NCBI GenBank assembly: GCA_003427395.1
Contig: BFEA01000015.1
Span: 6,633,859-6,697,858 of the forward strand
Length of the DNA stretch: 64,000 bases
Source of the DNA: Chara braunii
Taxonomy: Eukaryota; Plantae; Charophyceae
Direction of reading: 5' to 3'
A program made the position numbers and the translations under genes. Below the pieces are notes generated by a model. That model saw only the letters and a program-made list of their open reading frames with translations. It was not told the origin of the DNA and did no database searches. The stretch's first letter is position 1, and every line of letters begins with the position of its first letter. Of the stretch, positions 2,951 through 62,655 are shown in pieces.

Positions 2951-5863
2951 AGTTCGAACCAACTCCGATACCAAATTGCAAGGAAAATTAGCAGAAGCGA
3001 GATGCCAATAACCAGAATACACAATCACATTGAAAGCAAGAAAGTATTACAGTTTTCAGAAAGCAGCATTGCACCAATATGACACCAATGGAGAATCGTA
3101 ACACTGAAAATCAATGTCAATGAGAGGTTGCTCTCACCACCACCAACACAAGAGTCCAGAACCTTCTTCTTACTTGGCGCAGGCACCTAGCCTACTTCCT
3201 ACACAACTACAATCTGCCTACTAATTGACAATGCAATTGTTGACGTCAGCAGTCCACGAAGTACTTGAAGATGTCGCCCGATGCAGACTATCGCCAATAC
3301 CAGGTTTATGCCCTCACATCATCATCATCATCATCATTCTTCTCTCTCTCCCTCTTCTTACACCCACGTCTTCCTTTTGTACACCCGAAACCACCCCTGC
3401 GCCTCACCGTAGTTCAAACCCATCCAACTATGGAGGCTGGGCTATGGCGCGGTGTCGAGCGCATCGGTCCGGCACCGCACATGGCAGCGCGGGACCCTCT
3501 CGGCCGCGTCACGCAGGAGTTGGACCAACCTCGTCGCGAACACACAAATGAAGCTTCCTTAGGCCGCTCCGGCCGAGTGCGCCAGCCATACCTCTCGCAA
3601 GCCCCTACGACAGGATAGGGCCTACGCGAGGCACAACTTACCTCCACCTTACGGGAGCTGTCACCTCCCTTCGGTGGGCATATCCCCGCCGAGCTACCAG
3701 TCCACAGTACGAAAGCTACTCGGTTGCAATCGCAGAGGTGGACCAGCCGAGGGCTTTTCTCGTTCGCTGTAGCATAGGGGGTACGCGCGGTAATACGCCT
3801 ATCAGACCCGCACGCGGGCCGACATCTTGGGGGGCTGAATTCCCAAGTGTGGCTCGACGTCGGTCGACTAGGACGCATCCCACACACCACGCGCACACCA
3901 CTCTACGAACACAAAAACAAAACACACGCACACGCACACATTGCACAACACAAACAATGCGACAACGCTCCTAGTACCTCGATAGCCAACCCATAACTTT
4001 CCAATGCGGAAATCGGATAGGCGTCGCGCGCGAGACTTAGTATAAAACCGAGCGGACGCAGGGCTAACTCATATCGACTCGCAATGCAAACGTACGCAAG
4101 CAGTCACAATGATAACGTACTATGTCGTGCCCATAATCGTGCAGCCCTCGTTAATTTCGAGCGTCGCATTCGACACTCAAGTGTCGGCTGACACACGCCT
4201 TGAGGGTTAATCTCTCGACGCTGGACAACCGTCGTGCACGGTTGGAGACCACACCCTCTTCTACACCCTGTGCAGAGGGGTTGAGTAGACAACTTTAAGT
4301 TGTCGTGGCGGTCGAACATCAAGGGGTTTGACTTTGACGGCTGCCACGGACTATAACGTCCAACCATGAAAACACAAAAAGGAGACTCACTCCAACCCCC
4401 ATTAGCTGATGGCTCTCTAAAATGGAAAGGGGGTGGATAAGCCTAAACGACGCGCGCGCGGAGGAGGTCCGGTATCCTATCCATAGGCTACCCGGCGTCC
4501 GGGATAATGAGGCCCGAACACGGACCCCCAAAGGCTGACCGGAGCTAGTCCTCCGCCCACGTGCCACTTCACGTTACCAAGACCCCAAGTTTGCTGGCCG
4601 TGTCGCGCTCGTGATCTCGCCACCTGGCCCATAACTCATTTAGTGCGGGATTCGACGAGTGCCGCGCGCGAACTTAGTATAAGATTGCGAGGGCGCTGGA
4701 CTTACACATACTATGTTGCTATGCAGTTCTATGTGAGTAACCGCAATGATGGCGCGTTGTGTAGTGCCCACACCCAAATGACCTACTTTGAGCCAAGGGG
4801 TTCCCTTTCGATGCCCAGGCGTTGGCTGAAGCGCGAGCCAATGGGGGTAACCCTTTAGCTCGTGCAAAACCGGCCTGAGGGCCTTTCCGTCTTCTGCACC
4901 CTGAGGTGTCCCAACGGGTGCGGGGCAAGAGGGCCCCTAGGGCAGGAGGGAGTTTGGAGCGGTGGTGAGTTGTCTGGCGCATCACCAACAACACGCTCAC
5001 CCTTCCGCTCGGAACTTTATCGTTCCACCAAGATAAATCGCAACAAGGAAAAGAAACAAGAACTGGCGAGGGATATCCCCCCCTTTCTATTCACCCCAAC
5101 CTTCGACTGACCCTTAGTACGTGGGCACTTCAGGCCATGCTGGCTCCACACGTAGGTACACATGCACTGGCACGTATATATATATGCACAAGGGAAATAA
5201 TTATGTGACGATCACTTCTCACAGTCATAGTGGGTCTCCTCCTAGCCATACATATATATGCGACCGCAGGGCAGCCCAACCAAAACCCCAAATCTTTGAA
5301 CATACCTGCAATCACATCAAAAGTCAGACAAGAGTCCACCCACTACGCGGTGTCAACTCCAACCAGTTCCCATACTAATACCCCTCACTTTAGCCATGCA
5401 AACCCCAACCTCCAGCCAACCAACCTCAATTAAATACTCAGTACCTTTGTTAAATGGCCATTCAATAAAAGTCCGGGTGAAACCCTTAACAAACAAAAAG
5501 ATCACCAGGGCTAAAGCCTTTTAGGTTGAGTATGGGGAGCGCGTAGGAATTGAGTCGTGAGCCGAAGAATCGGCAACCGACCTGTTATCAGTGATAACAG
5601 ATGATGATCCTTGCAGGATCAACTGAACTAGCCCAAGTCCTGAATCGAATATCCAAGAAAGGCCTATACTATAAGACAGTTCAATGTCCAAGCTAAATCA
5701 TCAGCATACGGGGGATGACCCTTCATAGCACATTCTCACCCAAGTTACCTACCAACTAAATCAAAATCTACCCCTAAGCCAGTGCCCAAGCAAAGGTAGA
5801 CTAACGACAGGATCTCCCCTACTCAGGGTGGATCGCCAGAATCGCCATCTGTCAGAATATAAT

Positions 5864-6270
5864 CTAACTCCTCTAAGTCAAGAAAATTTCGGCAGCGCTT
5901 CCCGTAGGAAAAGTGTCTTTTCAGAATTTATATCAGCCCGAATATGAGAGCAGAAATAGTCTTTGACTTTCCAAAGTCCAATTTTGTCTAACTCCCTGAA
6001 TTAGCAAAAATTTGGGCAGCACTCCGTTTAGAAAAAGAGACTTTTCAGATTTTTACTAAGCCATACATGAACTTTAGACAGGTTGAACTTTGAAAATTCA
6101 AGAATTGACTAACTCCCCGAATTTGTAGAAATTTCGGCATCGCTTCCCGTAGAGAAAGTGACTTACCAAAATTTATACAAAGCCAAGTATAACAAAAGAT
6201 CCCCAAAATTGCGAGAATCGATCTAAGTAAAAAAAACTTAGCTCAGAAAATGCAGGAATTGACCTAACTC
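5864..6270. repeat. Degenerate ~120-125-bp tandem repeat (x3) inside the LTR; second copy ~24613-25020
   Basis: The unit ctaactcc...aaatttcggcagcgcttcccgtag..aaagtg.ctt..caraattta recurs at ~5864, ~5988 and ~6108. Confidence 0.75.
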
Positions 6271-6470
6271 CTATCGCTCTAGCACAAGGCGAGCCTCTAA
6301 AGCAACTACCTGTCAATCTGACACTCAAACCAAGTAGTAGCCTCACTCAGCCTCATGCAGGCCAAACCACAAAGGTAAGTACTCTCGCCACCCCAAATCA
6401 ATCTTTGCAAACAATAGTTCGTAACTTCTCAATGCTTTATCCCCTTATACCTAGCTTACATAGGGCATAA

Positions 6471-7366
6471 AATCAATTCGTCCAATCTTATGGAACTTGC
6501 CTGACTCAGCCATTCAGTATACACGAACAGGTTGCACAACTACTTTTCTCTTCTTTTTGGACATACGACCAGGCCGTTCATCTTAGAACAGGGCTTAGTC
6601 GCCCAGAACTGTTTAATATCCAACTTATATATACCTCTATGAGCTTAGTGTTTAAAAGTTGGGCATAGGACCGAGCCGTTCATCTTAGAACAAGGCCCGG
6701 TCTGCCCACTGCAGGGTTACCTTCAATTATACTCTTAATTATACTCTCTTCATTTTATGATAAGCTATAGCCAGGCCATCCAATCCTATGGAACCCATGC
6801 CTTGCTAGCCTGTTCATACATAGGATGGTATAAAATAGAATCAAAATTTAGCCTTTTGGGTTCCACCATGTGCGAGGCTTTGGGGCAGACCGTCCAATCT
6901 TATGGAACACATCTGGTCCTTTGCCAAGTTCGTTTCTCTCTGATCCACTGTGCACGGCATGAGTCCAAGGCCGTCCAATCTTATGGACATGCTTTGGCCT
7001 CTGCGAGAATTACCCCCTCAGAATAAAACAAGAGGGGGGGCTGAGTCGACCAATCTTATGGACTTGCTCAGACCTCCTCGATCAGAAACAGAAGAAACAG
7101 AACAAACCCCAATCAAACACGACAACCAAACCTTCCAATCTTATGGTACAGGTTCGGCCCCTGAAAAGTCAGCCACAGTCAAACCCTCACAATTCGAAGC
7201 AATCAGACCGTCCAATCTTATGGAACTGGTCTGACTCTCCATGCAAACTCAGAAATAAACATAGCAGTCAGGCCGTCCAATCTTATGCAACTGGATTAAC
7301 TCTCCATGCAAACTCAGAAATAAACACGGCGGTCAGGCCGTCCAATCTTATGGAACTGGTCTGACC
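6471..7366 (+). repeat. Array of 11 stem-loop motifs, core (GG)CCGTCCA-ATCTTA-TGGAAC, in the 3' LTR
   Basis: Cores at ~6479, 6572, 6675, 6774, 6890, 6969, 7045, 7131, 7208, 7271 and 7336, each with self-complementary flanks. Confidence 0.85.
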
Positions 7367-10300
7367 CCATAGGACCCTGTCAACCTCAAGCAAAACCACC
7401 ATTTACCCACCCTTCCCACAGATGCACCCCCTTGTGTTCACAATCTGCCTTCAAGCAATCAACAAACTGAGACTGCGATTGCACACACATTTCTTTATTT
7501 AGTCTGTCTTGTGTCCTGCCAGTCAATCCAAAGTCAAGGTAGGGGTGCATACAGTATACTCAGTCAAACATAGGGGGATGTACAAATAAGGGCTATACAA
7601 GGGTGTATAGAGGGAAGGGAATGGTTACCTCTCAGTTCCCTACCTCCAGAGCCTCGCCTAGGCTCCGGCAGAGCTCCCGCAATCGGTGGGGCAACCTCCC
7701 ACAAAGGCCTCGGCGTGGATTACGGGTTGCAATCCCGCCTGCCGCCTTCCTCTCAGAACTAATGGACTAGACTTAGAATGAGGAAGGCAGAAATAGAGAG
7801 TTGAGTCTCTCAGATACAAGAAGATGCTGTCAGACTCGCAGGAGAGGGCCTTGGTACCTTCATACGCCTGAGGGCCCTGCAATGGAAGCCAAAGTATATA
7901 GCAACTTGGTCAACGAAAGTCCAACCTCCTACCGTTGACCCTCCGGTGACCTTCCAATCAAGAATAATATCCTCTCTTCCGAACGAAACCGGACTCGCCG
8001 TAGAGACCACGACTCGAAATATGAGGACTATGGGTGAGCCCTCTGGCTTGAGGCTCCTCATCAGCCACTTCACTTAATAGGAAGGACTCTGAGGCGGCCA
8101 ACCGCCTAGTACCGCCTCTCGGCTGACCTGTCGTGGCTTCGTTCAACAATAGCCGCCTTGCTGGCCAAAAAGGAGAGTCTGCAGTTCTCACCGTCTGCCC
8201 CTTGTCACTCCGTTCTGCAGTCAATCAGCATACCAGCCAGCAGGCAAGGCTGCAGCCCTGCCACTGTCTCTTTACTTCTCCCCTCACTGAGGTAGGCAAC
8301 TGGTCAGCCAAATGGGCAGATCTTCCCTTGTTGCCCGACCAACGAGGTGAGCAGCTTACTGGGCAACAGATAGGTACTCGACCCGCCCTTCTCCTTGCCG
8401 CCGCTTCCCCTGCAGCTAGCTTACTCAATGGATCATCAGTCCGCTGGTCAGTAGGTAACTCCCGTGGCCGACGTTCTCCCTTGGGCGCAAGTTTGTTCTC
8501 TCACAATGCTCAAACCGTTCTCTTGAAGTCGGATCCGCCACCGCTAGTCAGTCCCCCATACCAGAGAGACCCGCACTAATCTCTTTTCCTACTGAATTTC
8601 ATTTAGAGTCGAGCGCGGAGCCTATTTCTAGCCCCCGCCCTGCCCTTCTCTCCGCCTACGCCACTGTTGTCCTCTCCTGCATGCACCTGGCGCCCGCCCT
8701 CGTCTAAGTTCACCCTCCTTTTTCTCCCCTCCTAACTTCTATCCCACCACCCCTTCGTTAACGCTAACTTCAATGTCGAATTCGCCCGACATCCAACCTC
8801 CAATCAAACCCCTCCACTTACTCGATTTCGTTACGAATCGAGTGGGGAATTCGCTTTCCTTCCTTCCACCATAGCTTTACGCAGCAGCTTTTTCAACTAA
8901 CCCTTTTCCTACTAATCTTTTACTAAATCTAACTACAGATTCGGGATCGCCTTTCCCGAAAACCCTTGTTTTGAGCCTCCACCTGAGTGATTCCGCCCAG
9001 GATTGCACGCGCTACTCTCTCCCCGCTGCGCCAAGCTCGCTGCCCCGCCATCTTCGTTTTCTTATCATGCATGCACCCAGCGCACTTTCGCGCCCGGGTT
9101 CATTCCCCACCTGGTGTTGTGTCCGGCCCTCCGACTTCCTTCTTTGCAGCTACCCGTCGCCCCTCGATACTGCGCTGCGTAGCGCTGCTAGCCCCTCGTT
9201 GCACCCGTCACCCCTCTCCTCACGATCTCTTCTTCCCGCATGTACTCGGCGCCCACCGTCGTCCGGGTTCATCCGCTGCTGTACCCCTGCGCTATCCCCT
9301 CCCGCTGTGTCGTGCTGCCTCCTACTTCTCTCTCCGCTTCCATCCCCGTTTCTTCCTTTCTTCGAACGAATTCGGCGGAAAAGTGCGTCTGGATTCCCTC
9401 CTCTTTGCGCCTGCCTACCCAGCCCTGTTGTCATCACCCCGACCTCCCTGCTCCCCGGTAGTAGTTAGCGCGGCCACGTCCTTCCCGACTGCCCCGATTG
9501 TCGAAACTTTTCGACGGACAAAACTCCCGGTCGCCCTGACCGATCCTCCACTTTAACCACTCTCCTGCTCCTTACGACCCCCGCTAGTCCGTTGCCCTGC
9601 CGGCCGCCCAAAGCCGCGCTACACAGGCTGGCCAACTCCGCCACCCTCATCTGAACCCGGCGGGACCCTCGACTAGGTCCCCTCCCCCTCTTGTGTGCTA
9701 CCTTCACGCTGGGGTGGGGCCGCAGAAACCTCCTCTGCGCAGTTCCAATTGTAACGGGTACCCCGAAGGACCTAATCGCGGTGGTACCCCACCCACGGTT
9801 CTTCGAAACTTGAACTCTCGGTCGAGGCACCGCGTCCCAAGTCAAATGGGACCACGCACAATAACGAAAATAATAAAACAATATAAAAAAAGAAAATGGT
9901 AACAAGGGCGAAATAAGATAATCATAGCCCAAAAAATCCCGAGCAAGATGCGGAGGCCACAACGCCCTACCGGCCCCGTGGACCCGGTCCACTGCCGCGT
10001 CCATCAGCAAAAGCCGAAGGGGGACAGCCCCGTCGGGCCCTCAACCCCCTCAACTTTTCCATACGCTCCGCTACCGCCGCGCCAACGCCGCTGGCCTCGA
10101 TCTCTACACTTCCACCGCAATAGCCCAATACCGTAAGCAATAGGGCTAAGCCCAAGCCTGGTGCAATGGAGCGCGAACTCCAATATGAGGTGGTGCCGCG
10201 CCGCGCTTAGGCCTGGGAATAACAGCTTGGGCCTTCCTGTCCAACCACGGCCGGCACGCCATCACCAGGCACCGGCACCAGCCTACTTGAGCCGTGCCGT

Positions 10301-12742
10301 GGCTATCCCACGGGCCACCCCGCGCGCCAGTCCTACCGTCGACCGTGCATGCCGACCCAAAAGCGGACTTTTATCCCTTAGTCAAAACCGTAGTACGGTC
10401 CAGGTTGGTCGACTAGGCCGACCGTTCACTCAATCAAAGAAATCACACGCGCGCCTTAATTTGCGCCCCCACATACCCCCTAACTTAGCCAGGGCGGGTC
10501 TCGGACGCGGTCGTGCCTCGCATGGCTTATTTCAACCAAACTCATTGTTCCCTGTCATCTGCAAAAACCCAGGGTGGATACCCTTGTAAGGGTATTCGCG
10601 CCGACAGCCTACCGGACTATATTAAGCGACATCCCCGTCGCTACACCAAATCAAAAGCTATAAATTTATCCACACTCCAAATGCTGACGAGAAAGGAATC
10701 CAATCCGATTAGCCGACAGACTCAGGGTTGAGGCCTCCAACACTCCATGCCGACATAATTATATGCTGCTAGGGTTTCAACTTGGGTTTCCAGTGTCCTG
10801 ACGCTAGGACGCAGGTGTATTACGCATCAATACTACAGCATACGTTCCAAAGGCCACCTCAAACCATCCTTTTTTCTTTGTCCTAGACAAACGTCGACTT
10901 TTTGTTGGGTGTCCCGGTTAGACTCTCTCTCGTACGCAGAGTCATAAGGGGACGCGGGCTTTAGACGAGACCTCAGAAGGCACTCTCGCTTCCCTCACAA
11001 AAACCCTCACAATCAAACATATATATATACATAAATCTCCTTTCGACTCTTTCTGCAGTCTAGCACAGAAACGCTAGGTCTCCATCCTGGCCCACCATAG
11101 TCCGGTTGATCGAGCCAGATCTACGGCCTACCACATTGTTATCTTAGCGGCAGTCCCTTCGTTGGTTATGCAACAATAGGTTTTCTCCTGATAGGCATTC
11201 AATCAGAGCGCCCAAACGACTCGACTCGTATCCCCCGCCATTCCACCAGAGTAATTTCCTTGGGGCGTGCATAAGCTCTTAAACTCGTACTCTGCTGGTA
11301 GACGTGGGCCCGCAGCCAGGTTGTGCTGGCTTGCAGCCATCCAATAGGGGTTGCACCCTAGAGGTGCTAACTTTTACCGTTTAGCTTGGTATTCCCTAAT
11401 ATGCCTTAGGATTAGCACAGGTGTCTAGGCGGTGCGTCGCAAAACAAACTCACAGGGCCACTGCGGGACGACGCAGGGATCTGCCCTACTTTTAAGGGTA
11501 TTTACCAGCCCCCTATGGGACAATATAGAGGGCACGGCCCCTTCTCACAATCACAAACAATCTCACCGCTAGGCTCACAAGAGGCCGTGGCCTACTGACT
11601 TGATCAGAGACAGCAGACCACACATCCCACGACATCTTTATGCACTAACTTGCGACCTTCTCGGTTCCACCAATGATTCCAACTCGTGATCCTGGTTCCT
11701 CTCGTCAGACTTTATCATTCAAACATTGTTTACCATGTCCTTAAATCTATCAGCCATTTTTTACACGAAGGGGGTCTCTATCAACAGGTCTCCCAACCAC
11801 CCCTCTCTTTACAGGATGGACTATCACGCGACCTGGGTTACACTGCTGTCAATAAACAACATCCCCACCTTCCATAATCCGAGGGGGTCTCAATTATAGA
11901 ACAACTCAACTGAGGGGCCTTCTTATGGGCCGTCTCCCCAACTTAAACGCAAAACAACTCAAACTAAGGGGCCAACTTATGGGTCCCCTTCACAGCTCAG
12001 CCATAAACATTCGGCATGGTAAGCATCTGTGCCTTATAGGCTCGCAAGACCCCTTAGGGTCCTCATACATCTGTCACAAAAACGACCGCGTTGCCTCCTC
12101 TTATACCCGGCCGTTCCGCCCACCCATGGGCAGGCCGCACGAGTATACCGAAGAGTAGACGGCAATTACAATCACACAATACACATACATGAGATGTATC
12201 CCACACATCTCTCACACAAAGCCCTCATTCATTGGGATAAAGCCACACGTGTGAGAGTGATCGTGATCGTCACAATAATAAGTCCCACAGAGTCTGGAAT
12301 CAAAGATATACTCGGGAGCAAAATATTTCCCTCAAGTCTCAATACGACACTCAACTCAAACCCTCAACACACAACTCGTAGGGTGTATTTGGGAACAAAA
12401 TGCCTGCCCCGAAAACACTAAAATGCTCACTCCACTGTCTCACTCCGCAAGATAAACTCACGTCCCAAGTGTCATGGACTCTCAGAACCTACTCAAAGAT
12501 ACAAATAAGAGTATCTGAATCACACAACTGAAAATGCAAGTCACGTATGTCGTAGATATCATACAACTAAGTCTCATCCCCTAGACCGTATCACACATAA
12601 AGCTCAAGCCGATCACACACCGCCACCTATGTTTATATAACTAGACGGGACTCGCCTGACTAACTCAGAGTATGTACACTCCTATCACGGTCTCTGCGTA
12701 CAGAGGAGCTCTAATCCTACTGTCATATAGACGGACCAGTCC

Positions 12743-15633
12743 CTACTCACTCATAGCCTTCTGGATCTGTCTATATAACTGTGCCCTACCCCCATTTGGA
12801 GCCCACTCTACCACTCGCCCCTGCCTGTCGTACATTCTCCCACCACTCTCTGTTACTCTCCTAGCCGCCTTGTTCTTAAGGAACTTCGGGCATTCAAGAG
12901 CTCTATGTACGCCGTCCTTGCAGAAGAAGCACTAATCGTCCGATCTCCCCCGACACCTCCTCCTCTTCTTCTGGGACCCAGGCAACGGCGGCGTCTCGTT
13001 AGTTTCCCTACTCATCTCATGGCTCTGGGGCATACTCCATGACTCTGCCGGCCCCGCCTCCATCATCTGGGTACTCGGCCCTGCTAGCGCCTCACCGCCC
13101 TCGGGTCGGTACGTTGGAGTGTCCAATCTCAGTGGCCTACCCTCGCGGACTCCTCCCATCGCAGTCGCCCCCTCGTCCCTATGCAGGTCAGAGGGCTGGG
13201 GAGTCACGGCAGTCGCTGGCTCGCTCATAACTTCCTGCTGCTGCTCTGAGATGTGCTCTCTTGAGTCAGCTCCAGTAGCCCAAGAGCCTAACTGCGTCCT
13301 CAGCTCCCCTATCTCTGGCACACGCTCTTGGGTCTTCTATCTCTGAGGCTCTCCTGACGGCATGTCCAACTCCATAGCGACCACTAACTCATCCAGTCGA
13401 GACGCCTCTCCCCCCATTGCCTCCGGCTCAGTGGATGCTGCTGCTCCCGTAAGGGCACCCTCCTGCACCTCCAAAAGGATCGTAGGGGACTCCTCTGTGG
13501 GGCCCCCTTCCTCCAATGGAGGTTGGGGTCCCTGCGCCGGCTCGCCCTCAGGGATCTCAATCGTCATAGGGGTGGCCTGTTGCGAGGCCAACTCCGTTGG
13601 CGTCCTGAAGCTGAACCTCTCCTCCTCGGCCTCCCGCCGTGCTGCCGCCTCTATTGGGTCCAAAAATATCTTCCCCATACCTCCTTGCTGAGGTGGCTCT
13701 GTCGTCCTTTCCCAGCCAAAGAGCCCCTGTACCTCCTCCCCCTGGATACCATACCGGCTTTGCTCCATCCAGTCGACCACCTTAGTGGCCGAGAGCCTCT
13801 CCACCATCGCCGCCATGTCCCGGAGCCTCTTCTCCCATTCCGCTTCCTTAACTTCCATACGGGACCTCCATGCTTGATTTTCTGCCCTCTCTTCTGCCAG
13901 TTGGGTGGACAACTGTCCCACCTCTAACCTCGAGGCCGCCAACTCATCGCTGAGCATGGAGTACCGTTGGAAGGACGAGACCGCCACCTCACCTATCCTC
14001 CTATCTGTACGCTCAATCTCCATCCTGGCGGCTGAAAAATCCCCAAGTCCTCTATCTCTCGTGCCTCGTCCAATCTTGCACTTCCCTGTCCTACCTCTCG
14101 CGACCTCAGGCGAGCCGCATCCCTCTCGCTCTCATAGCTGGCCCAAGCCTCACTAATCCTCTGCTCGCTCGTCGGAGGGTCAATTGGCGGCTTTGGCGCT
14201 TCTCCTGCGACCTCCATCCTAAGCTTTTCGTGGTATAGCTCTTCGAGGCGTACCTGCACCCTCGCGCGTTTCTCTTCTTTCGTCTCCCCCGGCAGCCTCC
14301 CTGTCCTCGCCTCGTGACCCTCTCGCAGTGGATCTCTCGCACTTGTCCCCTCTTCTACGGGTGGCGTCCCTGGCGGAGGCTCCCCGGATGTCGGCACCTC
14401 CACATCCATGCATGCACATGTAGACTCAGTTAGTTGCGGCGCCACAGTAGTAGGTGTCCTCGCCCTCTCGCCCCCATCTGGCTCCGCCTGTGTCGGGGGT
14501 GGCGTAGTAGCTTCCGGTGGGGGCCCCAACATCTCCTCGCTGTCCGGTTCATGAATTCCTTCAAGCCAATACTGCCGCGCCTGTTCTGGCATCGGGGTAG
14601 GAGGAGGGGTATCATCCCCAATAGTGATAAACCCCTCAGTCTGCGGCTCCTCGGGTTCGCGAGACCCCGTCTCAGGCCCCGACTCAGGTGGCTCCTCCTC
14701 TGGCTCATCCTCTACTGGCTCATACCGTGCCGGTCTGCTCTGGTCCGCCCCCAGCTGTGACGCCCCCCACTGGGACGCATCGAGATGAGCCTCCAACCTG
14801 TCGAGTTGCGTCCTCAACGGCACCGCTTCTCCCCCCTCTGGTAACGTCGGCGACGGGCCCCGTAGATCACTGCCCATGATTCGGCGAAACTCCACCTGCT
14901 CGAGTCCATAGGTAGCGGGTAGCTCCGCCGCCTGAGCTGGCCCCGCGGCCTGAACTGGCTCCACCGCCTAGGCGGCCTCTGCAGGCCCCTCTCGCTGTGC
15001 CAAGGCCTTTCGGCCCCCTCTGGTCGTAGTGGTCCCTCTCGCCTCTGGGCCCCGTGGCCTCTTACTCCTATGTCGTCTCTCCACCCTGGGCTCTGGTCTC
15101 TCGGGCTCCAGTCGTCGAAACGCCTGTCTGAACTGGGCCTGGCAGTCCTCCCAGTCGTGTGCTCTGTCCCGGACCTGCCTCGCCAACGACCTCTCCGCCC
15201 TCCGTGTCCAGAGGGGCAGCATCTGCATCCACTCCTCCTGCCCAGTCCCCTGGTCGCGCATATACTGCTCATAGGCCGGGATGAACTCCTCCGCATTGCC
15301 TTCCTCCAATCGAATAGGCAATCCATCCGGTCCCATCGGCGAAGCCCTCAGCATCTGCATCCTCGCCTCCACATTCTGCCATGTCAACGCCTCCTCTCGA
15401 ATGTGCGCAATAGGTTCCTCGAAGCGCCCAACTCCCCTCAGGTGTCGTATCCTTTCCAATGTAGACCAGCTCTCCCATGTCGCATGTGCCTGGTAGGAGT
15501 CCAGAAAAAGCTTTATGTTACCGTCGTCGAAGATAGGTGTAGACTCCCTCCCAACCGATCTGCGCGAGTCATCCCCTCTTGATGCTCCCTGAGGCCTCTA
15601 TCGTGGCAGCGCACCCCTCCCGCCCCTCTTCAT
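12743..15633 (-). pseudogene. Extra ORF downstream of integrase: second Gag-like protein (~960 codons; four in-frame TAG stops and one frameshift near 14040)
   Basis: ATG at 15633 (MKRGGRGALPR). Capsid-like PIFDDGNIKLFLDSYQ...TWQNV and PIRLEEGNAEEFIPAYEQ...DWEDCQAQFRQAF. Pro/Glu-rich and coiled-coil-like middle. CFFCKDGVHRALEC (CX2CX4HX4C) at 12931-12890. Final stop at 12745-12743. Joins track ORFs 14968-15459, 13993-14964, 13337-14023 and 12932-13321. Confidence 0.8.
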
Positions 15634-15655
15634 GGCTGTCTTCGAGAAGTCAGAC

Positions 15656-15701
15656 CTGCACAACAGGCGAGAGAAAGCAAGCAGGCACACAACAAGGTTA
15701 G
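15656..15701 (-). promoter_or_regulatory. Putative 3' splice acceptor upstream of the extra ORF
   Basis: Minus strand: CTAAC branch-point motif (15701-15697), pyrimidine-rich tgcctgcttgctttctctcgcctgttg, then TGCAG|G (AG at 15657-15656). The ATG is 22 nt downstream. Confidence 0.6.
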
Positions 15702-16903
15702 CCCTCGGTCCCTGATACCCAATCCCGCCAGCCTGTCCCGTCCAGCTCCTCGATCTGATAGGCCCTAAATTCGCCGCATTGCAATATTCTATAGGGCCCC
15801 AACCATCTCTTGTCAAGCTTCCTCGACCATTGCTTTTCCAAAGAGGAGTCGTATAATAATACGACATCCCCTACTGCCAATGACTCCTTTCTTACTCGTG
15901 TCATCTGGTCCCACCTCATCTTATCTTCCATGCGACTTCTTTCCACCTGACCAGCGGCCTCTCGCAATCTTTCTTCGGCCGCCCCCACTTGTCGCGCCCG
16001 AATATCGAGCAGTTCTTCGAACAACAGGTTTACCTCCAAGTCCTGGCGCCTCCATGTCTTCATAAAGCTTTCTATGGGAAATGTGGCATGCCTCCCGTAC
16101 CATAGTGTGGCTGGCGCGTACTTGGTAGTCCTCTTTACAGTAACATTCTCCACGAAGAAAGCTGCCCGTAGGAACTTCGGCCACTGACCAGGTTTGCCCT
16201 TTGTCCACTTAGCCAGGAGATTCGTGATGGTACTGTGCCCCCTCTCCACAGGAGCGTTCGCTTGAGGGTGTGCAGCCGTAGTATAGTTGGCCACTACGCC
16301 ATACCCTGCAAGCAACGTCCTCACCTCATTGCAGGTAAACTATGATCCTCGATCCATCACGAACTCCCTGACAAAAGGGTATCGCACGTAATACTCCTCG
16401 ATGCAGTTCGCCAAAACCGGGTCAGTCTTCGTCCGGATAGCTCGTCCGTCCACAAACCCAGTAAGGTTATCCCGTGCATCAAAGATGTAGTTACACCCAT
16501 TCTCCCCTGCTGGCATGAATAACAGGTCCAGGTGCACGACCACACCCACTTCCCTTTCTAACCTTGGGTGTAAAGGTTCTCCAGGCCTTTGCGCCGACCT
16601 CTCTTGGCAAGGTATACAGGACCGGCAGTATTTGATAACCATCGTCAGCATCCCGTCCCAATGGTAGAGCTCGCTTATCTTCGCGCATGTGGCACGTACT
16701 TCTCTGTGCCCCCTTGCTATACCATCGTGTAGGGCCGCTATGATATCAATTTGCCGGTTTCTCCCACATACGATCCTCTTGGGGTTCCCGACCTGCCGCT
16801 TTATAAACAAGTGACCGTCTCTTACCACATAGAGGTGCCTCATCTTCTGTGCCTTGGCACTTGCATCTCTATCCCTCATCTCACATGATAGGAGCAACCC
16901 CAA
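15698..16903 (-). pseudogene. Integrase domain of pol (interrupted by TAG at 16342-16340)
   Basis: HHCC zinc finger (LHDGIARGH...CRSCIPCQ), DDE residues in VHLDLL, MDRGS and NAPVERGH, and a GPY/F motif (RWLGPYRI). No chromodomain visible. Confidence 0.93.
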
Positions 16904-16982
16904 TTCCCGGTAGATCCCATCGTACTCCTCCGCCTGAAACGCCTCCTTGATTTCTCCTTCCTTGAATTCGTCGTCTCGGCTT

Positions 16983-18660
16983 TCAGGAACCAGAATCTCT
17001 GAACGAGCTCTTCCGGTCGAAGTCTCCCTGTAGGAGCGTATTGGTGAGCAGGTACATCCCTCTCATTAGCTGCTCATGCTCCTCTACCTGCGTGGGGTCT
17101 TCCTCTATTGTCCTCACTTCCTCCACCAGACTGTGCGTACCTGCCAACGCCAACTTCATCATCCAACCAACATCCTTACTTCCCCACGGATCCTCCTCAT
17201 GAAAGGGCTTGAGGACTAACTCTTCCTTCTGCTCGTACCCCTTTGGTGCCAGCCATATGGGATGACTGACGCAACTAGGCAATCGCAGGGACCATTCGTT
17301 TATGTGCAGGTGGACGTCCTCCTCTTGATCGAAAAACCCATCAACTGGCGGCGTGTCTTCTATCGATTCCTCGTCCGATCCGTCCCAGTTGATGCGGCTT
17401 AACCCATCTGCCCTGTTCTTGTTCCCTGGGATCCTTTCCAGCTCGAAATTAAACATCCAAATGTAGGTCAACCATCTTGCGACGGTTGGATCAGATAGAG
17501 TATAATTCTTCAGGGAACATGCCAGTGCAGTAGGGTCCACCCTCAAGATGAGCCTCCTGCCAAAAACATAGTTCTGGAAGGTCCTTAGGCAATGAAGTAC
17601 CGCCAGCGTCTCCTTCTTGAACTGAGAGTAGTTCCTCTTAGTTGTATTGAGGGTACGACTTTCGAATCTTAGCGGCCTCTCCTTCCCCTCTGTATCTGCC
17701 TGAATCAGGACCCCTCCCAGGGCAGTTGGCCCAGCGTCCGTCTCAATGACGAATGGTCTTTCCTCCGTGGCCTCATAGTTTGGCGCTCCCAATACCAAGC
17801 CTCCTTCCTTAAACTCTCCCTTTATCCTACCGACCGCCTCTTCCTGGTCTTCGCCCCAGACCCATTCTTGATCTTGGCGCACCAACTTCCTTAAATGCTC
17901 CGTCTTCGTGGCAAAGTCCTTCACGAAGCTCCTCCAAAATCCGCACGTCCCAAGGAAACTCCTCACATCTGCTATCGAGCGGAAGGGCACCGGCCACTCA
18001 AGAATCTTGTCTGTCTTCTTTACATCAGGTCTTCGCCCACTCTCATTACAGACAAAGCCTAGAATCGTGGCCTCCCTCATACAATGTTTCGACTTGGGGC
18101 CGCTCGCCGTCAGGTTATGTTCCCCCAATAACTCCAGAACCTGATCAATGTCTTGGACATGCTTCCAGACAAAGCGTCGCACACCGGGCATCACTTCATC
18201 TTCCTCCTTCTCCTTCGGACCTTTGACTGCCAGGTCATCGATATAGGGCTGAGTGATATGTGGGCTGACCGTCTGCATGGCTCTGATCATATACCTTTGC
18301 ACCATCGCCACTGCATTCATCCAACCTTGAGGCGCCACGTTCATATGAATCAGCCCTCTAGGAGTGTGCATTGCCGTTACGGGTCTGTCTGGCGGGTATA
18401 TGGGGAATTGGTCATACCCCGAGTAGAGGTCTATAAGCGAGATTATAGGCCTCCCTGCGCACGATTCTGACAATGCGTCCGCGTTCGGCAATCCCCCCGC
18501 GTCCTGCACTGTCACTGCATTTAGCTGTTGCAAGTCCTGCACCCACCTTAGCGTCCCATTTGGTTTAATAAAACAAAACCAAGGCGACGCGTATGGCCCA
18601 CTGGAATAATCGGCCACGTGCGTCCGCATCTTGCGGTCCAGGTAGTCCACCACCATCAGC
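16983..18660 (-). pseudogene. Reverse transcriptase and RNase H of pol; RT N-terminus apparently lost by deletion near 18660
   Basis: PYASPWFCF, LIDLYSGYDQ, PQGWMNA, YIDD (18245-18234), VRSFLGTCGF; RNase H IETDAGPTALGGVL, KETLAV and NRADGLSR. Confidence 0.95.
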
Positions 18661-19542
18661 CCTATCTTCCTCCTCGGGTACTTCCCCAAGCCATCTCCGC
18701 TTGTTCTCTGACTCCTCAAAGGTGAACGAGCCTAGATTGGGCCTATTCCTCTCGCTCCCCAGCCCCGTGTTCCGGCAGGTGATAACTTCATAATTCTCAC
18801 ACGCCGGGTCACACAGGAGCAGGATCATTGTTTCATCGTGCTTGTTGAAGATCAACATTTCCGTCCGGCACAGGAATGACTGGCCCAGAAGGATGGGGTG
18901 ATCGACATCGGGCATAACGAAAAAGCAAGTTCTGGCTCACACCTTCCCAATCTCTATAATCACATTTGACGTTGTGCCGCAAAAGGCGGCCTTGCAGTTA
19001 GCGCCGTGCAACACGCCATGGTTCGAGCGGTCGATCTCCATGCCTATCATCACTGCCTCATTTTCCCTGATGATGTTCATCTCTGCACCCTTGTCCACCA
19101 TCCCAGTACACTTCAGGTTCCTTATCACCAAATCCACCTGCCCGCACGCCACACATTTCCAATCCATCCTTGTCCCTGCCTCAGTCCACTCTACCTCTCT
19201 AGGCAGGACCGTACTCAGATGGACATTTGGCACCAACCTTCGCGACAGTCGTCCCTTCAACTCACCATGGAGGCTTGGCGCCGAAGCCAGGATGTCCTTT
19301 AGGTTCATCAAGTCATTGTGGCCTTCCAGGAGCTTGTCCACCATCCGCTCCACATCAAAGCCTTCCTCCATCCGGACCGCGTACTTCTTCCTCTTAGGCA
19401 CGCTGTCAGGCACGCTTGGCTCGGCCTCCTCCTGGGCCCCCCTCTTTTTGGCCCTCAGCTCCGCCCGCTGATCCTCCTCTTGTCGGAGCCTCTCATCCTC
19501 TTCATCGTCATCCTTTTCCTCTTCCTCCGGAACCTTCACCAC
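18660..19542 (-). pseudogene. Aspartic protease region of gag-pol; catalytic motif reads DKG rather than D[ST]G
   Basis: GMVDKGAEMNII (D codon at 19095) followed by DHPILLGQSFL, a typical retropepsin C-terminal motif. Confidence 0.85.
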
Positions 19543-19584
19543 CTCCTTCCTACGTCCAGGCTCCGGCTCCTTTCGAGGGGGTGC

Positions 19585-21593
19585 CTAACTGGGCACCTGA
19601 CTGGGCTCTTGACTATGCCCAGCCTTATTTTGGCTCCTGGTCCTAGCCGCCTGCGGCACCCTCCCATGCGACGTGGGGGGTCTATAGGTCATACATGACC
19701 TAGGGCCCGTCCCTACAGTCGCCACTCTTGGGCACCCTTGTTGTCCTGGCGAAGGCTCTGGCCCGGAGTCATAAAGGAAGACCTCAGGCAGGTTGGCCTC
19801 CCACTCTCGGGCTTCTTCACACAGGGCTTGCAGCTTCCGCTGGTATCTCCCCACCTTTTCCAGCAGATCTTCCATCCTTCCCAGGAGGAGTGTGGACGGC
19901 TCTCCTTCGCCTTTCTGCCCCTCATCGTCCAATTTGACGACTATTGGCTCCTCTCTTATAGTCCCCGCCTTTAGTCGCTGAGTGACCTCCTCGCTATCTC
20001 CCACAATCTCCTCAACTTTTATGGCCAACTCTCCTTTNTCCTGCCACATCCTNAACATGGTCGGGGTTGNCGATGGCCCTGNCGCCGCTCGCCTAAGAGC
20101 TNCTTGCCTGATTCCTCCCGGGGTCCTAGGGTCNATATGCTCTCCCCACTTATCATATATATNNCCGTCCANACAAGAGGAAATTAGACCTGCCAACTCA
20201 TCATCTCGCCGCCGTTGGCAGAACCGTATAGTGTGGCCCACCTCGCTACAATGCCAGCAGGTGGCGTTTCGCCACTCAAAGCGGGGCCTCCCATACCCTT
20301 GGCCCCCCTCTTGGCCACCTCGGCCGCCTTGGTTCTGACCCCCCTGACCATTCCAACCACCCCCGCGATCCCCACCATTTCCTCCTCGGCCTCGGCCGCC
20401 ACCCCCTCGACCCCCGTGACCTCGGCCCCTATTGCCTTGTCCGCCTTGTCCTTGGTTTCTTCCACTGGCCACGCTAACCTGCGAGGCCTGTTGGGAGGGA
20501 GGTGGTTGGGCCATAAACTGACCCTGAGCCGCAGGGTAGCTCGGGGGCCCCATACTTGCCGTTGGGCCCGCTTAAGGGACCATTTGCCCGGGCTGAGTCT
20601 GACTATCCCCGCACGAGGCGCAGTGATTACAAACTGGGCCAGTACGTAGGCTGACAATGCGGCACCCAATGCCCACAAGCCGGAGGCGGCCCCATACATG
20701 ACGGCCCGGCCGTTGCTGACGTTGTCGTGGCTGCAAGTGGCGGCGCAGCAATCGCATGCGGGACCTGTCCTTTTCCGGATCCTTGACCCCCCACTTGTAA
20801 ATTTCGCTGCTTCCTCTAGGCCTTGGTTAGAATCTGGGAGCCCGTCTCTTCTCCGCCATAGTCCTCGCGCCTAGCCTCCTCTTCCACTGCCCCCGACGCC
20901 CGGCCTTGGGCCACGGTCACTCCCCTCTTCTGCACTTCCGCCTCATTATCATACCCCAGCACTGCCAATACGTCCATGACGATCCTCTTCACCCCTGGGG
21001 TCCCGAACGCGGTGGCGTCCGTTTCCTTTCTCTTGCGTCTTTGCAGCCGCACCTGGTGCTGCTCCACCTGGTCCAGTCTCCCCTCCTCCACCCCTTTGTC
21101 GATAGTGGCCCAGGTGATTTCTCATTTCCCCCTTCGTGACCCGTCAGCTCCGAGGCCTCCGAGCCAGTAAGCAGACCCAAAAATATGGCACACTGCGTTT
21201 CTTCGGAGATCCCGTGCACCTTCCGCGCCTTCTTTTTAAACTCGTGCACAAACGCCCCAATCGTGGAGAAAATCCATCCCCCAACCTGTACTTTCTCTGC
21301 ATCATGTCCCTGAACCTCGCCCAACTACCATTGGCGGCATCCACGACCTTGCCCACTTCCTGATGGTGGCTATGAAGGACATATCTTAAGACTCGCTGAA
21401 GCTTGACCTCGTCCGACAGCCCCACCAGTGCTTGCTCCGTCAGGTCCAGCCAGTCGGACATCCGTTCTCCCTTGAAGTGGAAAGTATCAACCTTCGGAAC
21501 ATTGCTCGGCGCCCTCTCGCGCTTATCCAGGGCATCGATGAGGTCGTCGAGCGTTACAAGCTTTCTCCCACCATCCGCCATCTCCTCAGGCAT
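19585..21593 (-). pseudogene. gag (capsid plus nucleocapsid), frameshifted and stop-interrupted
   Basis: ATG at 21593. Capsid-like FHFKGERMSDWLDLTEQ...SWARFRDMMQRKY, a Gly/Arg-rich tract, and the zinc knuckle CWHCSEVGHTIRFC at 20259-20218. Confidence 0.9.
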
Positions 21594-21987: not shown

Positions 21988-22005
21988 TCCCCGGCAACGG
22001 CGCCA
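21988..22005 (-). promoter_or_regulatory. Primer-binding site complementary to the 3' end of tRNA-Asp
   Basis: Minus strand TGGCGCCGTTGCCGGGGA, 2 nt inside the 5' LTR. This is the known plant tRNA-Asp PBS sequence (as in Athila-type elements). Confidence 0.92.
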
Positions 22006-22007
22006 CC

Positions 22008-25000
22008 TGTCGAGCACATCGGTCCGGCACCGCACATGGCAGCCCGGGACCCTCTCGGCCGNNNNNNNNNNNNNNNNNNNNNNNNNNNNNNNNNNNNNNN
22101 NNNNNNNNNNNNNNNNNNNNNNNNNNNNNNNNNNNNNNNNNNNNNNNNNNNNNNNNNNNNNNNNNNNNNNNNNNNNNNNNNNNNNNNNNNNNNNNNNNNN
22201 NNNNNNNNNNNNNNNNNNNNNNNNNNNNNNNNNNNNNNNNNNNNNNNNNNNNNNNNNNNNNNNNNNNNNNNNNNNNNNNNNNNNNNNNNNNNNNNNNNNN
22301 NNNNNNNNNNNNNNNNNNNNNNNNNNNNNNNNNNNNNNNNNNNNNNNNNNNNNNNNNNNNNNNNNNNNNNNNNNNNNNNNNNNNNNNNNNNNNNNNNNNN
22401 NNNNNNNNNNNNNNNNNNNNNNNNNNNNNNNNNNNNNNNNNNNNNNNNNNNNNNNNNNNNNNNNNNNNNNNNNNNNNNNNNNNNNNNNNNNNNNNNNNNN
22501 NNNNNNNNNNNNNNNNNNNNNNNNNNNNNNNNNNNNNNNNNAATACGCCTATCGGACCCGCACGCGGGCCGACATCTTGGGGGGCTGAAGTCCCAAGCGT
22601 GGCTCGACGCCGGTCGACTAGGACGCATCCCACACACCACGCGCACACCACTCTACGGACACAAAAACAAAACACGCGCGCACGCACACATTGCACAAAC
22701 AACACAACACAAACAACGCGACAACGCTTCTAGTCCCTCAGTAGCCAACCCATAACTTTCCAATGCAAAAATCGGATAGGCGTCGCGCGCGAGACTTAGT
22801 ATAAAACCGCGCGGACGCAGGGCTAACTCATATCGACTCGCAATGCAAACGTACGCAAGCAGTCGCGATGATGACGTACTATGTCGTGCCCATAATCGTG
22901 CGGCCCTCGTTAATTTCGAGGGTCGCATTCGACACTCAAGTGTCGGTTGACACACGCCTTGAGGGTTAATCTCTCGACGTTGGACAACCGCCGTGCGCGG
23001 TTGGCGACCACACCCTCTTCTGCACCTTATGCAGAAGAGTTGAGTAGACAGCTTTAAGCTGTCGTGGCGGTCGAACATCAAGGGGTTTGACTTTGACGGC
23101 CGCCACGGACTATAACGTCCAACCATGAAAACGCAAAAAGGAGACTCACTGCAACCCCCATTAGCTGATGGCTCTCTAAAATGGAAAAGTGGTGGATAAG
23201 CCTAAAGGACGCGAGCGCGGAGGAGGTCCGGTATCCTATCCATAGGCTACCTGGTGTCCGGGATAATGAGGCCCGTACACGGACCCCCATAGGCTGACCG
23301 GAGCTAGTCCTCCGTCCACGTGCCACTTCACGTTACCAAGACCCCAAGTTTGTTGGCCGTGTCGCGCTCGTGATCTCGCCGCCTGACCCATAACTGTTTT
23401 AGTGCGGGATGCGACGAGTGTCGCGCGCGAACTTAGTATAAGATCGCGAGGGCGCTGGACTTACACATACTATGTCGCTATGCAGTTCTATGTGAGTAAC
23501 CGCAATGACGGCGCGTTGTGTAGTGTCCACACCCAAATAGCCTACTCTGAGCCAAGGGGTCCCCTTTCGACGCCCAGGCGTTGGCTGAAGCGCGAGCCAA
23601 TGGGGGTAACCCTTTAGCGCGTGCAAAACCGGCCTGAGGGCCTTTTCGTCTTTTGCACCCTGAGGTGTCCCAACGGGTGCGGGGCAAGAGGGCCCCTAGG
23701 GCAGGAGGGAGTTTGGAGCGGTGGTGAGTTGTCTGGCGCATCACCAGCAACACGCTCACTCTTCCACCCGGAACTTTATCGTTCCACCAAGATGAATCGC
23801 AACAAGGAAAAGAAACAAGAATTGGCGAGGGATATCCCCCCCCCTTCTATTCACCCCAAGCTTCGACTGACCCTTAGTACGTGGGCACTTCAGGCCACGC
23901 TGGCTCCACACGTAGGTACACATGCACTGGCACGTATATATATATGCACAAGGGGAATAATTATGTGACGATCACTTCTCACAGTCATAGTGGGTCTCCT
24001 CCTAGCCATACATATATATGCGACCGCATGGCAGCCCAACCAAAGCCCCAAATCTTTGAACATACATGCAATCACATCAAAAGTCAGACAAGAGTCCACC
24101 CACTACGCGGAGTCAACTCCAACCAGTTCCCATACTCATACCCCTCGCTTTAGCCATGCAAACCCCAACCTCCAGCCAACCAACCTCAATTAAATACTCA
24201 GTACCTTTGTTAAATGGTCATTCAATAAAAGTCTGGGTGAAACCCTTAACAAACAAAAAGATCACCAGGGCTAAAGCCTTTTAGGTTGAGTATGGGGAGC
24301 GAGTAGGAATTGAGTCGTGAGTCGACGAATCGGCAACCGACCTGTTATCAGTGATAACAGATGATGATCCTTGCAGGATCAACTGAACTAGCTCAAGTCC
24401 TGAATCGAATGTCCAAGAAATAAGACATGTCAATGTCCAAGTTAAATCATCATCATACGAGGGATGACCCTCCATAGCACATTCTCACCCAAGTTACCTA
24501 CCAACTAAACCAAAATCTACCCCTAAGTCAGTGCCCAAGCAAAGGTAGACTAACGGCAGGATCTCCCCTACTCAGGGTGGATCGTCAGAATCGTCATCTG
24601 TCAGAATATAATCTAACTCCTCTAAATCAAAAAAATTTCGGCAGCGGTTCCCGTAGGAAAAGTGTCTTTTCAAAATTTATATCAGCCCGAATATGAGAGC
24701 AGAGATAGTCTTTGACTTTTCAAAGTCCAATTTTGTCTAACTCCCTGAATTAGCAAAAATTTGGGCAGCACTCCCTTTAGAAAAGGAGATTTTCCAGATT
24801 TTTACTAAGCCATACATGAACTTTAGATAGGTTAAACTTTGAAAAGTCAAGAATTGACTAACTCCCCAGATTTGTAGAAATTTCGGCAGCGCTTCTCGTA
24901 GAGAAAGTGGCTTACCAAAATTTATACAAAGCGAAGTATAACAAAAAATCCTAGAAAATGAGAGAATTGGTCTAAGTGAAAAAAACTTAGCTTAGAAAAT

Positions 25001-28000: not shown

Positions 28001-29283
28001 ATCCGCTGCTGTACCCCTGCGCTATCCCCTCCCGCCGTGTCATGCTGCCTCCTGCTTCTCTCTCCGCTTCCATCCCCGTTTCTTCCTTTCTTCGAACGAA
28101 TTCGGTGCAAAAGTGCGTCCGGATTCCCTCCTCTTTGCGCCTGCCTACCCTGCCCTGTTGTCGTCACCCCGACCTCCCTGCTCCCCGGTAGAAGTTAGCG
28201 TGGCCACGTCCTTCCCGACTGCCCTGATTGTCGAAACTTTTCGACGGACAAAACTCCAGGTCGCCCCGACCAATCCTCCACTTTAACCACTCTCCGCGCT
28301 ACACAGGCTGGCCAACTCCGCCACCCTCATCTGAACCCGGCGGGACCCTCGACTAGGTCCCCTCCCCCTCTTGTGTGCTACCTTCACGCTGGGGCGGGGC
28401 CGCGCAAACCTCCTCTGCGCAGTTCCAATTGTAACGGGCACCCCAAAGGACCTAATCGAGGTGGTGCCCCACCCACGGTTCTTCGAAACTTGAACTCTCG
28501 GTCGAGGCACCGCGTCCCAGGTCAAACGGGACCTCACACAATAACGAAAGTAATAAAAAAATATAAAAAAATAAAACGGTAACAAGGGCGAAATAAGATA
28601 ATCATAACCCAAAAAATCCCGAGCAAGATGTGGAGGCCGCGACGCCCTACCGGCCCCATGGACCCGGTCCACTGTCGCGTCCATCAGCAAAAGCCGAAGG
28701 GGGACAGCCCCGTCGGGCCCTCAACCCCCTCAGCTTTTCCATACACTCCGTTACCGCCGCGTCAACGCCGCTGGCCTCGATCCCTACACTTCCACCGCAA
28801 TAGTCCAATACCATAACCAATAGGGCTAAGCCCAAGCCTGGTGCAATGGAGCGCGAACTCCAATATGAGGAGGTGTCGTGCCGCGCTTAGGCCTGGGAAC
28901 AACAGCTTGGGCCTTCCTGTCCAACCACAACCGCCACGCCATCACCAGGCACCGACACCAGCCTACTTGAGCCGCGCCGTGGCTATCCCACGGGCCACCC
29001 CGCGCGCCAGTCCTACCATCGGTCGTGCATGTCGACCCAAAAGCGGACTTTTATCCCTTAGTCAAAACCGTAGCACGGTCCAGGTTGGTCGACTAGGCCG
29101 ACCGTTCACTCAATCAAAGAAATCATACGAGCGCCTTAATTCGCGCCCTCACATACCCCCTAACTTAGCCAGGGCGGGTCTCGGACGCGGTCGTGCCTCG
29201 CACGACTTATTTCAACCAAACTCATTGTTCCCTGTCATCTGCAAAAACCCAGGGATACCCTTGTAAGGGTATTCGCGCCGACA
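22008..29283 (-). repeat. 5' LTR (includes N gap 22062-22541)
   Basis: Starts tgtcgagcacatcgg at 22008 and ends ttcgcgccgaca at 29283. Lacks ~50 bp present at ~9564-9613 in the other LTR. Confidence 0.95.
25220..26105 (+). repeat. Array of 11 ATCTTA-loop stem-loops in the 5' LTR
   Basis: Counterpart of 6471-7366, with the same number and order of units. Confidence 0.85.
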
Positions 29284-62520: not shown

Positions 62521-62620
62521 TAGGGTTGCCGGCGTTCGGGACGGGCCAAATGCCCGAACCTGAACATTTGACCGTTCGGCACCCCCTCTCGACGCATTCG
62601 GCTGTTCGACCGAATGCGGA

Positions 62621-62655
<35 letters not shown>

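Follow-up and report, generated by a model that had tools for sequence, protein, structure and literature searches.

A stretch of 64,000 nucleotides from Chara braunii (contig BFEA01000015.1; hereafter the window) contains on its minus strand a complete but dead retrotransposon of 25.8 kb, whose LTR pair ending in TG...CA, target-site duplication, primer-binding site and gene order gag-protease-RT-RNase H-integrase place it in Ty3/Gypsy (Metaviridae) (Table 1). When the window was compared with itself by BLAST, the LTRs were 93.8% identical over 6.8 kb. The empty target site is visible in a related repeat, as reads with loose ends at 3450, and the primer-binding site is of what we take to be the tRNA-Asp type. 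The genomic RNA (the element minus one LTR) measures approximately 18-19 kb. The gag (Gag1) reading frame is broken by frameshifts, stops, and single Ns; a sister Gag1 (P0052) matches Retrotrans_gag (E 0.002) and DUF4100 (E 5e-6) in a Pfam scan. Pfam matches in pol include RVT_1, RT_RNaseH, and Integrase_H2C2, together with weak matches to SH3_Tf2-1 and Asp_protease_2. Behind pol lies a further gene, ORF3, which we consider, with high confidence, to be real, conserved, and derived from Gag. The ORF list contains no minus-strand ORF of 70 aa or more wholly inside the stretch that separates it from the 3' LTR.

Table 1. Features of the Ty3/Gypsy element, in window coordinates.
Feature	Position	Strand	Remarks
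Target-site duplication	3449..3452, partner 29284-29287	-	CCGC, 4 bp; ends read directly
3' LTR	3453..10606	-	7154 bp, TG...CA; ends read directly
Non-coding stretch between ORF3 and 3' LTR	10607..12742	-	2.1 kb
ORF3	12743..15633	-	Very probably a Gag-derived accessory gene; ~960 codons; broken in window copy
CCHC knuckle and conserved tail	12746..12931 (knuckle 12931-12890)	-	Gag1/DUF4100-lineage type
Linker	12947..15100	-	~700 residues; acidic, proline-rich, low-complexity; basic patch at each end
Capsid lobe 2 (predicted)	15109..15321	-	Four helices, N-lobe-like; from profile and predicted structure
Capsid lobe 1 (predicted)	15346..15540	-	Four helices, N-lobe-like; AlphaFold pLDDT 93.5 when folded alone
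Predicted splice acceptor of ORF3	15656..15701	-	Branch point 15701-15697, pyrimidine tract, AG 15657-15656
pol	15701..19584	-	Protease, RT, RNase H, integrase, in this order; broken
gag (Gag1)	19585..21593	-	N-lobe, C-lobe, Gly-rich stretch, CCHC knuckle 20259-20218, tail
Primer-binding site	21988..22005	-	2 bases behind 5' LTR; from sequence
5' LTR	22008..29283	-	7276 bp, TG...CA; contains 480-base N gap; ends read directly

Reading frame and sister copies of ORF3

Minus-strand translation bears out the original prediction of a sense ORF of approximately 960 codons. The frame runs from an ATG at 15633 to a final TAG at 12745-12743 (2891 bases), and is interrupted, as had been stated, by four internal TAGs (at 15600, 14970, 13339, and 12934) and by one frame change near 14050. 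The two N-terminal modules that had been quoted (lobes 1 and 2 in Table 1) and the C-terminal CCHC knuckle, CFFCKDGVHRALEC, followed by a GRMYDRQG...GG tail, were recovered in the same translation. ORF3 had also been described as lying directly after integrase. A sense ORF does lie behind integrase, but its immediate adjacency is partly peculiar to the window copy: reads of relatives stop matching the window at 15707 from one side and at 15711 from the other, from which we infer that the end of integrase and a spacer were deleted in this copy.

Such a frame is not a product of chance, because 90 related proteins and 112 profile matches exist. All 90 proteins related to the N-terminal part of ORF3 are labelled as Chara braunii gene models, the window's own (P0079) among them. 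The profile matches came from a search of 1.84 billion representatives; ten of the more distant ones were looked up and proved to be eight Chara models and two unrelated repeat proteins. The latter (P0158, a Clytia repeat protein, and P0163, an unnamed repeat) were excluded as chance matches before all counts. A search with the knuckle returned 22 further matches, all from Chara, and scans of metagenome and viral contigs for relatives yielded 203 and 64 pattern matches, respectively, none of which was confirmed.

Among the 90 sister proteins searched, a residue rather than a stop occupies the four TAG sites in 38/38, 19/21, 35/35, and 22/22 of the models spanning them, and 37 of the 47 models that reach both sides of the frameshift site read straight through it. 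P0003 matches the first ~810 residues of ORF3 with four gap positions in its alignments, and P0007, P0009, and P0045 match the last 430 residues without a gap. Gap-free cover of the entire ORF3 was found in 0/171 gene models, and no intact copy was seen. Given that gene models are open by construction, these counts indicate that the breaks are not family-wide, and they do not give the share of intact copies. The window copy is itself dead throughout, because its gag and pol also carry frameshifts and stops.

The claim that ORF3 lacks a transmembrane segment also stands. The top Kyte-Doolittle 19-mer scores are 0.47 and 0.61 in its two frames, and no hydrophobic segment appears in 40 sister parts (19-mer scores of 1.45 or less). 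ORF3 thus has the env-like position, as a sense ORF between pol and the 3' LTR, without the env-like transmembrane segment.

Capsid-like lobes, linker, and knuckle

Both N-terminal modules had been likened to Gypsy capsid domains, and structure prediction agrees. AlphaFold models compared against 48,161 chains match Arc/dArc N-lobes with Z 8.8 each, a value close to the caution line of the comparison tool. Lobe 2 aligns to residues 46-121 of dArc1 (Z 8.8, rmsd 1.9, 72 aligned) and reaches Z 6.4 at most against C-lobes. Lobe 1 aligns to the Arc N-lobe (Z 8.8, rmsd 1.6, 62 aligned) and to dArc1 47-121 (Z 8.7), with Drt2, a Ty1-derived C-lobe, as its fifth structural match (Z 7.8), about tied with the N-lobes. 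The top Foldseek rows for the lobes are capsid lobes of Arc, dArc, Ty3, PEG10, and Ty1, none with E below 0.001, and the pair modelled together again forms two four-helix lobes (pLDDT 83.9). In a profile search of the PDB with 26 sequences, N-lobes of Drosophila Arc2 and Arc1 make up the top four of five matches, the best being that of dArc2 to lobe 2 (E 0.0011); a lobe-1 profile gave chance matches only in the PDB (best E 0.13). Pfam found no gag family, Retrotrans_gag included, in the ORF3 pieces or in the 26 lobe sequences. An Atlas feature search with the lobes, which supplies leads only, scored 0.91 to DUF7041 and 0.86-0.87 to Retrotrans_gag and DUF4939 clusters. Both modules are predicted, on these models, to have the capsid-lobe fold.

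Which lobes they are is a separate matter. Compared by profile, lobe 1 and lobe 2 resemble each other strongly (95.8%, E 8e-9; 73 sequences each). Lobe 2 also matches the Gag1 N-lobe (E 9e-4 over 64 columns), lobe 1 does so at E 0.06, and shallower lobe and Gag1 profiles found nothing (E 0.12-0.22). Against the Gag1 C-lobe the ORF3 lobes gave short matches only (E 0.07 and 0.13), and no C-lobe was recognised in ORF3 by the lobe profiles and by models of the two lobes. The modules probably represent a tandem duplication of an N-lobe without a recognised C-lobe, a reading tempered by the fold that N- and C-lobes have in common and by the thin margin for lobe 1. One correction to the earlier comparison is that the modules do not look like the ordinary N-lobe and C-lobe pair of a Gypsy capsid, both scoring best as N-lobes. 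This bears on the idea that ORF3 encodes a true second capsid, with lobe 2 in the role of the C-lobe and with its own particle built round its own spliced RNA or the genome. N- and C-lobes are one fold that arose by an old duplication (PMC8121366, in the part available), both modules match C-lobes too (Z 6-7.8), and the order lobe-lobe-knuckle is that of Gag domains. Against it, besides the preference of both modules for N-lobes, stand the poor fit of the complete lobe pair to Ty3 and Arc (TM ~0.3, rmsd 12-16, with an uncertain predicted angle between the lobes) and the 700 residues between lobes and knuckle, which together leave a true second capsid quite unlikely.

The intervening linker evolves faster than the lobes and the knuckle, and its middle (~14350-13640) is helical and probably coiled-coil, as judged from sequence. 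At the C-terminus the parallel to Gag1 that had been pointed out is substantiated by hhalign: knuckle plus tail align at 93.6% (E 2e-7) and the tail still aligns by itself (E 2e-4), with 15 versus 12 sequences after the removal of four ORF3 rows from the "Gag1" set. An earlier value of E 3e-35 was discarded, 4 of the 16 "Gag1" rows having been ORF3 knuckles. The Atlas model of a sister knuckle and tail matches land plant and basidiomycete clusters (TM 0.71-0.76), two of six of which carry DUF4100 or gag-protease families. In a tree of 54 rows and 68 columns, with labels assigned by best profile and a bootstrap that had not settled, a long branch (100/100) divides 33 ORF3 knuckles from 21 Gag1 knuckles. 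This Gag1/ORF3 phylogeny, which had been proposed as a check, fits a single split that would predate the spread of these families. Descent from the lineage's own gag is well supported by these comparisons for the knuckle and tail; for the lobes, the profile matches hint weakly at the same descent.

ORF3 had accordingly been viewed as an old gag paralogue kept as a separate gene. Its Gag ancestry and its fixed place behind pol, documented below, agree with that view. It is not a complete second Gag; it has two N-lobe-like copies, no recognisable C-lobe, a linker of ~700 residues, and no protease behind it.

Inheritance, constraint, and predicted splicing

The lobe is present in 160/161 proteins, of which 136 also contain gag/pol parts. 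In 134 of these 136 models the gag/pol parts lie solely upstream of the lobes, and in 2/136 on both sides; in none do the lobes precede all gag/pol parts, the first-ORF place typical of a Gag. The ORF3 knuckle occurs in 41 proteins, within 13 residues of the C-terminus in 37, and nine proteins carry both the Gag1 and the ORF3 knuckle. It should be noted that sister copies are kin, so that these position counts, like the identity counts below, are not independent. The order lobe-lobe-linker-knuckle behind pol is kept in distant families (P0130, P0145, P0153, and P0154). The possibility that ORF3 is a one-off fragment is thereby answered, as diverged families carry it in the same place.

In pairwise comparisons, lobe identity rises and falls with that of protease (rho 0.93, n 17), RNase H (0.88, n 12), and integrase (0.82, n 17), followed by RT (0.71, n 18) and the Gag1 lobes (0.69 and 0.50). 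Across all parts rho ranges from 0.50 to 0.93 and n from 8 to 26, using the same models and non-independent kin. In relatives whose lobes are 55-58% identical to those of the window, the knuckle is 65% and parts of the linker 32-38% identical, and the Gag1 N-lobe and RT are 69% and 83% identical, respectively. Read differences offer a second view of constraint. Without selection, a quarter to a third of differences would be expected to be silent. Among the differences listed (40, of which 36 fall within a frame; 210 further ones exist), 9/15 at the start of ORF3 and 16/21 in integrase are silent. The position counts, the co-divergence with pol, and the silent differences together indicate that ORF3 is inherited with the element and is under constraint, and the identities suggest that it evolves somewhat faster than Gag1.

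These data also weigh on the reading of ORF3 as a passenger, namely a remnant of an old nested element or a captured gag that is copied along without function. The five breaks in the window copy, and the lack of an intact copy among those seen, would suit such a remnant, but gag and pol of the same copy are equally broken. Furthermore, families with lobes below 45% identity to those of the window still have lobes, knuckle, and acceptor, against a drifting linker, and, as originally noted, ORF3 bears no marks of nested insertion: self-BLAST reveals one LTR pair round the whole element, and neither an LTR remnant nor a repeat pair flanks ORF3. A nested insertion is ruled out by this absence together with the fixed place and the co-divergence with pol, and the passenger reading is largely refuted and highly improbable.

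The original prediction overlooked a splice acceptor upstream of ORF3 (Table 1), which would start an exon at 15655, leaving 22 bases ahead of the ATG. The branch motif takes another form of the same consensus in reads of relatives. A peptide beginning at 15655 is shared by 52 of the 90 gene models, nearly all of which join it to differing upstream parts; these joins are evidence of a conserved acceptor-like site rather than of real splicing. Two contigs from run X4, which is RNA by guess only, match 15615-15657 and 15615-15658 beyond which each continues into a sequence of its own, neither of them a pyrimidine tract. One contig has 3160 bases, approximately the length of ORF3, at a depth of 24; the first exon base is number 31 in it, which a fork of the assembly graph at the junction would explain. 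The upstream pieces match nothing in the window (best 9/28 and 4/18 mismatches) and could be host exons. Raw RNA reads over ORF3 are sparse in X1 and X3 (depth below 1, with 5 and 7 reads there), and in X2, 237 reads cross the acceptor unspliced, mostly opposite in orientation to those of X1 and X3. No joint or loose end at 15655 is listed in three raw-read runs, of which 6-13% was read. On the strength of the branch point, pyrimidine tract, and AG, and of the two X4 contigs that leave the element at this point, ORF3 is likely expressed by splicing in the manner of env.

Possible functions and relation to known systems

For the ORF3 protein, which joins two N-lobes to a nucleocapsid knuckle through a long tether and has no recognised C-lobe, the role that we tentatively favour is that of a minor, accessory component of the virus-like particle of the element. 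A transcript started in the LTR would be spliced to the acceptor at 15655, as in env messages. C-lobes link capsid rings, and a protein without one would be unable to close a shell alone; its paired N-lobes would fit into the rings that N-lobes make in the Gag1 lattice. In the dArc capsid, both the pentamers and the hexamers are built from N-lobes (PMC8121366, in the part available). The knuckle, at the end of a 700-residue tether, would keep hold of a genomic RNA that is unusually long (~18-19 kb), and the protein would help to build a large enough shell or would load the RNA. A prediction of the complex of the Gag1 capsid with the ORF3 lobes, run without alignments, scored 0.00 and speaks neither for nor against such docking. 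The great distance of the ORF3 lobes from those of Gag1 makes co-assembly less obvious.

A partial capsid protein may also spoil a particle. Under self-restriction, the ORF3 protein would bind the Gag1 lattice or RNA and disrupt assembly as copy number rises, in the manner of Ty1 p22/p18. An incomplete capsid protein made from a subgenomic RNA is the p22 design (available parts of PMC4599808 and PMC8458377), and Drt2, the fifth structural match of lobe 1, is an endogenised Ty1 restriction factor. Both p22/p18 and Drt2 are C-terminal-domain copies of their target Gag that reside within GAG or at a host locus, whereas ORF3 is separate and deeply diverged and has no more than the short matches described above to the C-lobe of Gag1. 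A 2.9-kb gene kept by many amplifying families also suits a helper more than a brake, and we regard self-restriction as unlikely.

The linker draws attention to a role outside the shell, in which the lobes would bind peptides in the way of the mammalian Arc N-lobe. The knuckle would bind RNA or cDNA complexes of the element and so tie them to host partners that serve export, entry into the nucleus, targeting, or movement through plasmodesmata. A long, fast-evolving, partly helical linker with basic patches is adaptor-like, peptides are bound by the human Arc N-lobe (PMC8121366, in part), and ORF3 sits in the env slot, for which movement and chaperone roles have been proposed (PMC7264820, in part). 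Against this, dArc N-lobes themselves have not kept the peptide site, according to the sections of PMC8121366 at hand, and Pfam scans revealed no host partner or targeting domain; an adaptor is likewise an improbable explanation. An extension of the minor-subunit reading, less likely than not, is a retrotransposon with two capsid genes, in which a spliced twin-N-lobe Gag paralogue would co-assemble with Gag1 as a dedicated scaffold or size-setting component for a genome of nearly 20 kb, or for cell-to-cell carriage.

Comparable elements are found among the non-chromovirus Ty3/Gypsy of plants (Athila, Tat/Ogre/Retand, and barley Bagy2) and the Copia element SIRE, which are also giant, have very long LTRs, and resemble the Chara element in a sense ORF placed after pol and ahead of the 3' LTR; for Bagy2, splicing has been reported (PMC7264820, PMC6317226, both in part). 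These extra ORFs are env-like or belong to other families, in contrast to ORF3 with its lack of a transmembrane segment, and most extra ORFs behind pol in plant retrotransposons are without known origin or function (PMC7264820, in part). The REXdb extra-ORF domain table, restricted to E 1e-10 or better and to five or more elements, has no gag, capsid, or knuckle domain in its 12 rows (PMC6317226). A link to moss elements is the match of a sister Gag1 to DUF4100, a Physcomitrella family. The Physcomitrella non-chromovirus Phygy likewise has a 4-bp target duplication, NCGN, like the CCGC of the one insertion here, but it measures 7.7-10 kb, has no extra ORF, and mostly uses a tRNA-Trp site, compared with 25.8 kb and ORF3 in Chara (PMC6317226, in part). 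The four-helix capsid-lobe fold, present twice and in ORF3 by prediction, and a terminal CCHC knuckle are common to ORF3, Ty3/Gypsy Gag, Arc/dArc, PEG10, and PNMA2, from all of which ORF3 differs in its two N-lobe-like modules, its 700-residue linker, and the presence of a normal gag in the same element. In LTR elements of bdelloid rotifers, third ORFs (GDSL, DEDDy, coiled-coil, TM) also fill the env slot with a non-env function and are typically spliced, but these are captured enzymes or membrane proteins rather than Gag derivatives (PMC5408684, in part).

A second gag behind pol is absent from the available portions of PMC7264820, PMC5408684, and PMC13524379, and from the literature searched in part, a body that did not include the Chara genome paper or REXdb supplements 1 and 3. 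Within that literature there is no precedent for a Ty3/Gypsy element whose env slot carries a Gag-derived ORF with an unusual, predicted twin-N-lobe design. ORF3 has a clear origin, in the element's own kind of Gag, and predicted domains that are directly testable. It implies that a duplicated structural gene can occupy the env slot and use the splice route that goes with it, and it offers a natural tandem N-lobe protein for the study of how shells of the Ty3/Arc type are sized or controlled. If the two-capsid-gene reading were true, ORF3 would be a second structural capsid gene, of a kind not encountered among the retroelements covered by the partial literature searched.

Insertion site and repeats

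The element, a dead Ty3/Gypsy LTR retrotransposon, is inserted within another, transcribed repeat, and the empty site of this host repeat is shown by the RNA, since loose read ends occur at 3450 in all three raw-read runs (X1, X2 and X3). RNA read depth over the LTRs, which carry internal repeats of their own, is far greater than over the internal region. Another repeat is dispersed in the window.

Coordinates of features in the window
Feature	Position	Strand or orientation	Remark
Host repeat	3300-3452, 29284-29330
LTR internal repeats	5864-6199, 7198-7359; copies 24613-24948, 25939-26105		diverged ~123-bp three-copy array and 65-bp tandem repeat
Dispersed ~700-bp repeat	30267-31013, 53204-53958, 62529-63280	both	three copies, 69-80% identical
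Conserved pol region	17400-16900	minus	~170 residues
Predicted acceptor to ORF3 ATG	15655-15634	minus	22 bases
Pyrimidine tract and AG at gag	21690-21593	minus
Donor-like AG|GTACGT	near 21920	minus	strong

Conserved pol region and related gene models

After RNase H and before the integrase zinc finger, pol holds a conserved region without a Pfam match. Among Chara gene-model proteins related to the element, P0159, P0160 and P0164 represent a distant family in which the twin capsid lobes are kept behind pol; these models stop in a helical region and lack the knuckle, reflecting either a truncated variant or cut gene models. P0089, named a GT2-family glycosyltransferase, consists mostly of sequence of the element's retroelement family and is probably an annotation fusion.

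Splice signals at ORF3 and gag

From the predicted acceptor to the ATG of ORF3, the Gag-derived gene behind pol, the reading frame is open; the short peptide encoded there is conserved between subfamilies (sister gene models), and the sole read difference in this stretch, among the differences listed, is silent. Translation of ORF3 may start within the upstream exon. The gag ATG, too, has a short pyrimidine tract and an AG ahead of it, so a single leader might be spliced to gag or, alternatively, to ORF3. A strong donor-like motif also occurs in the element.
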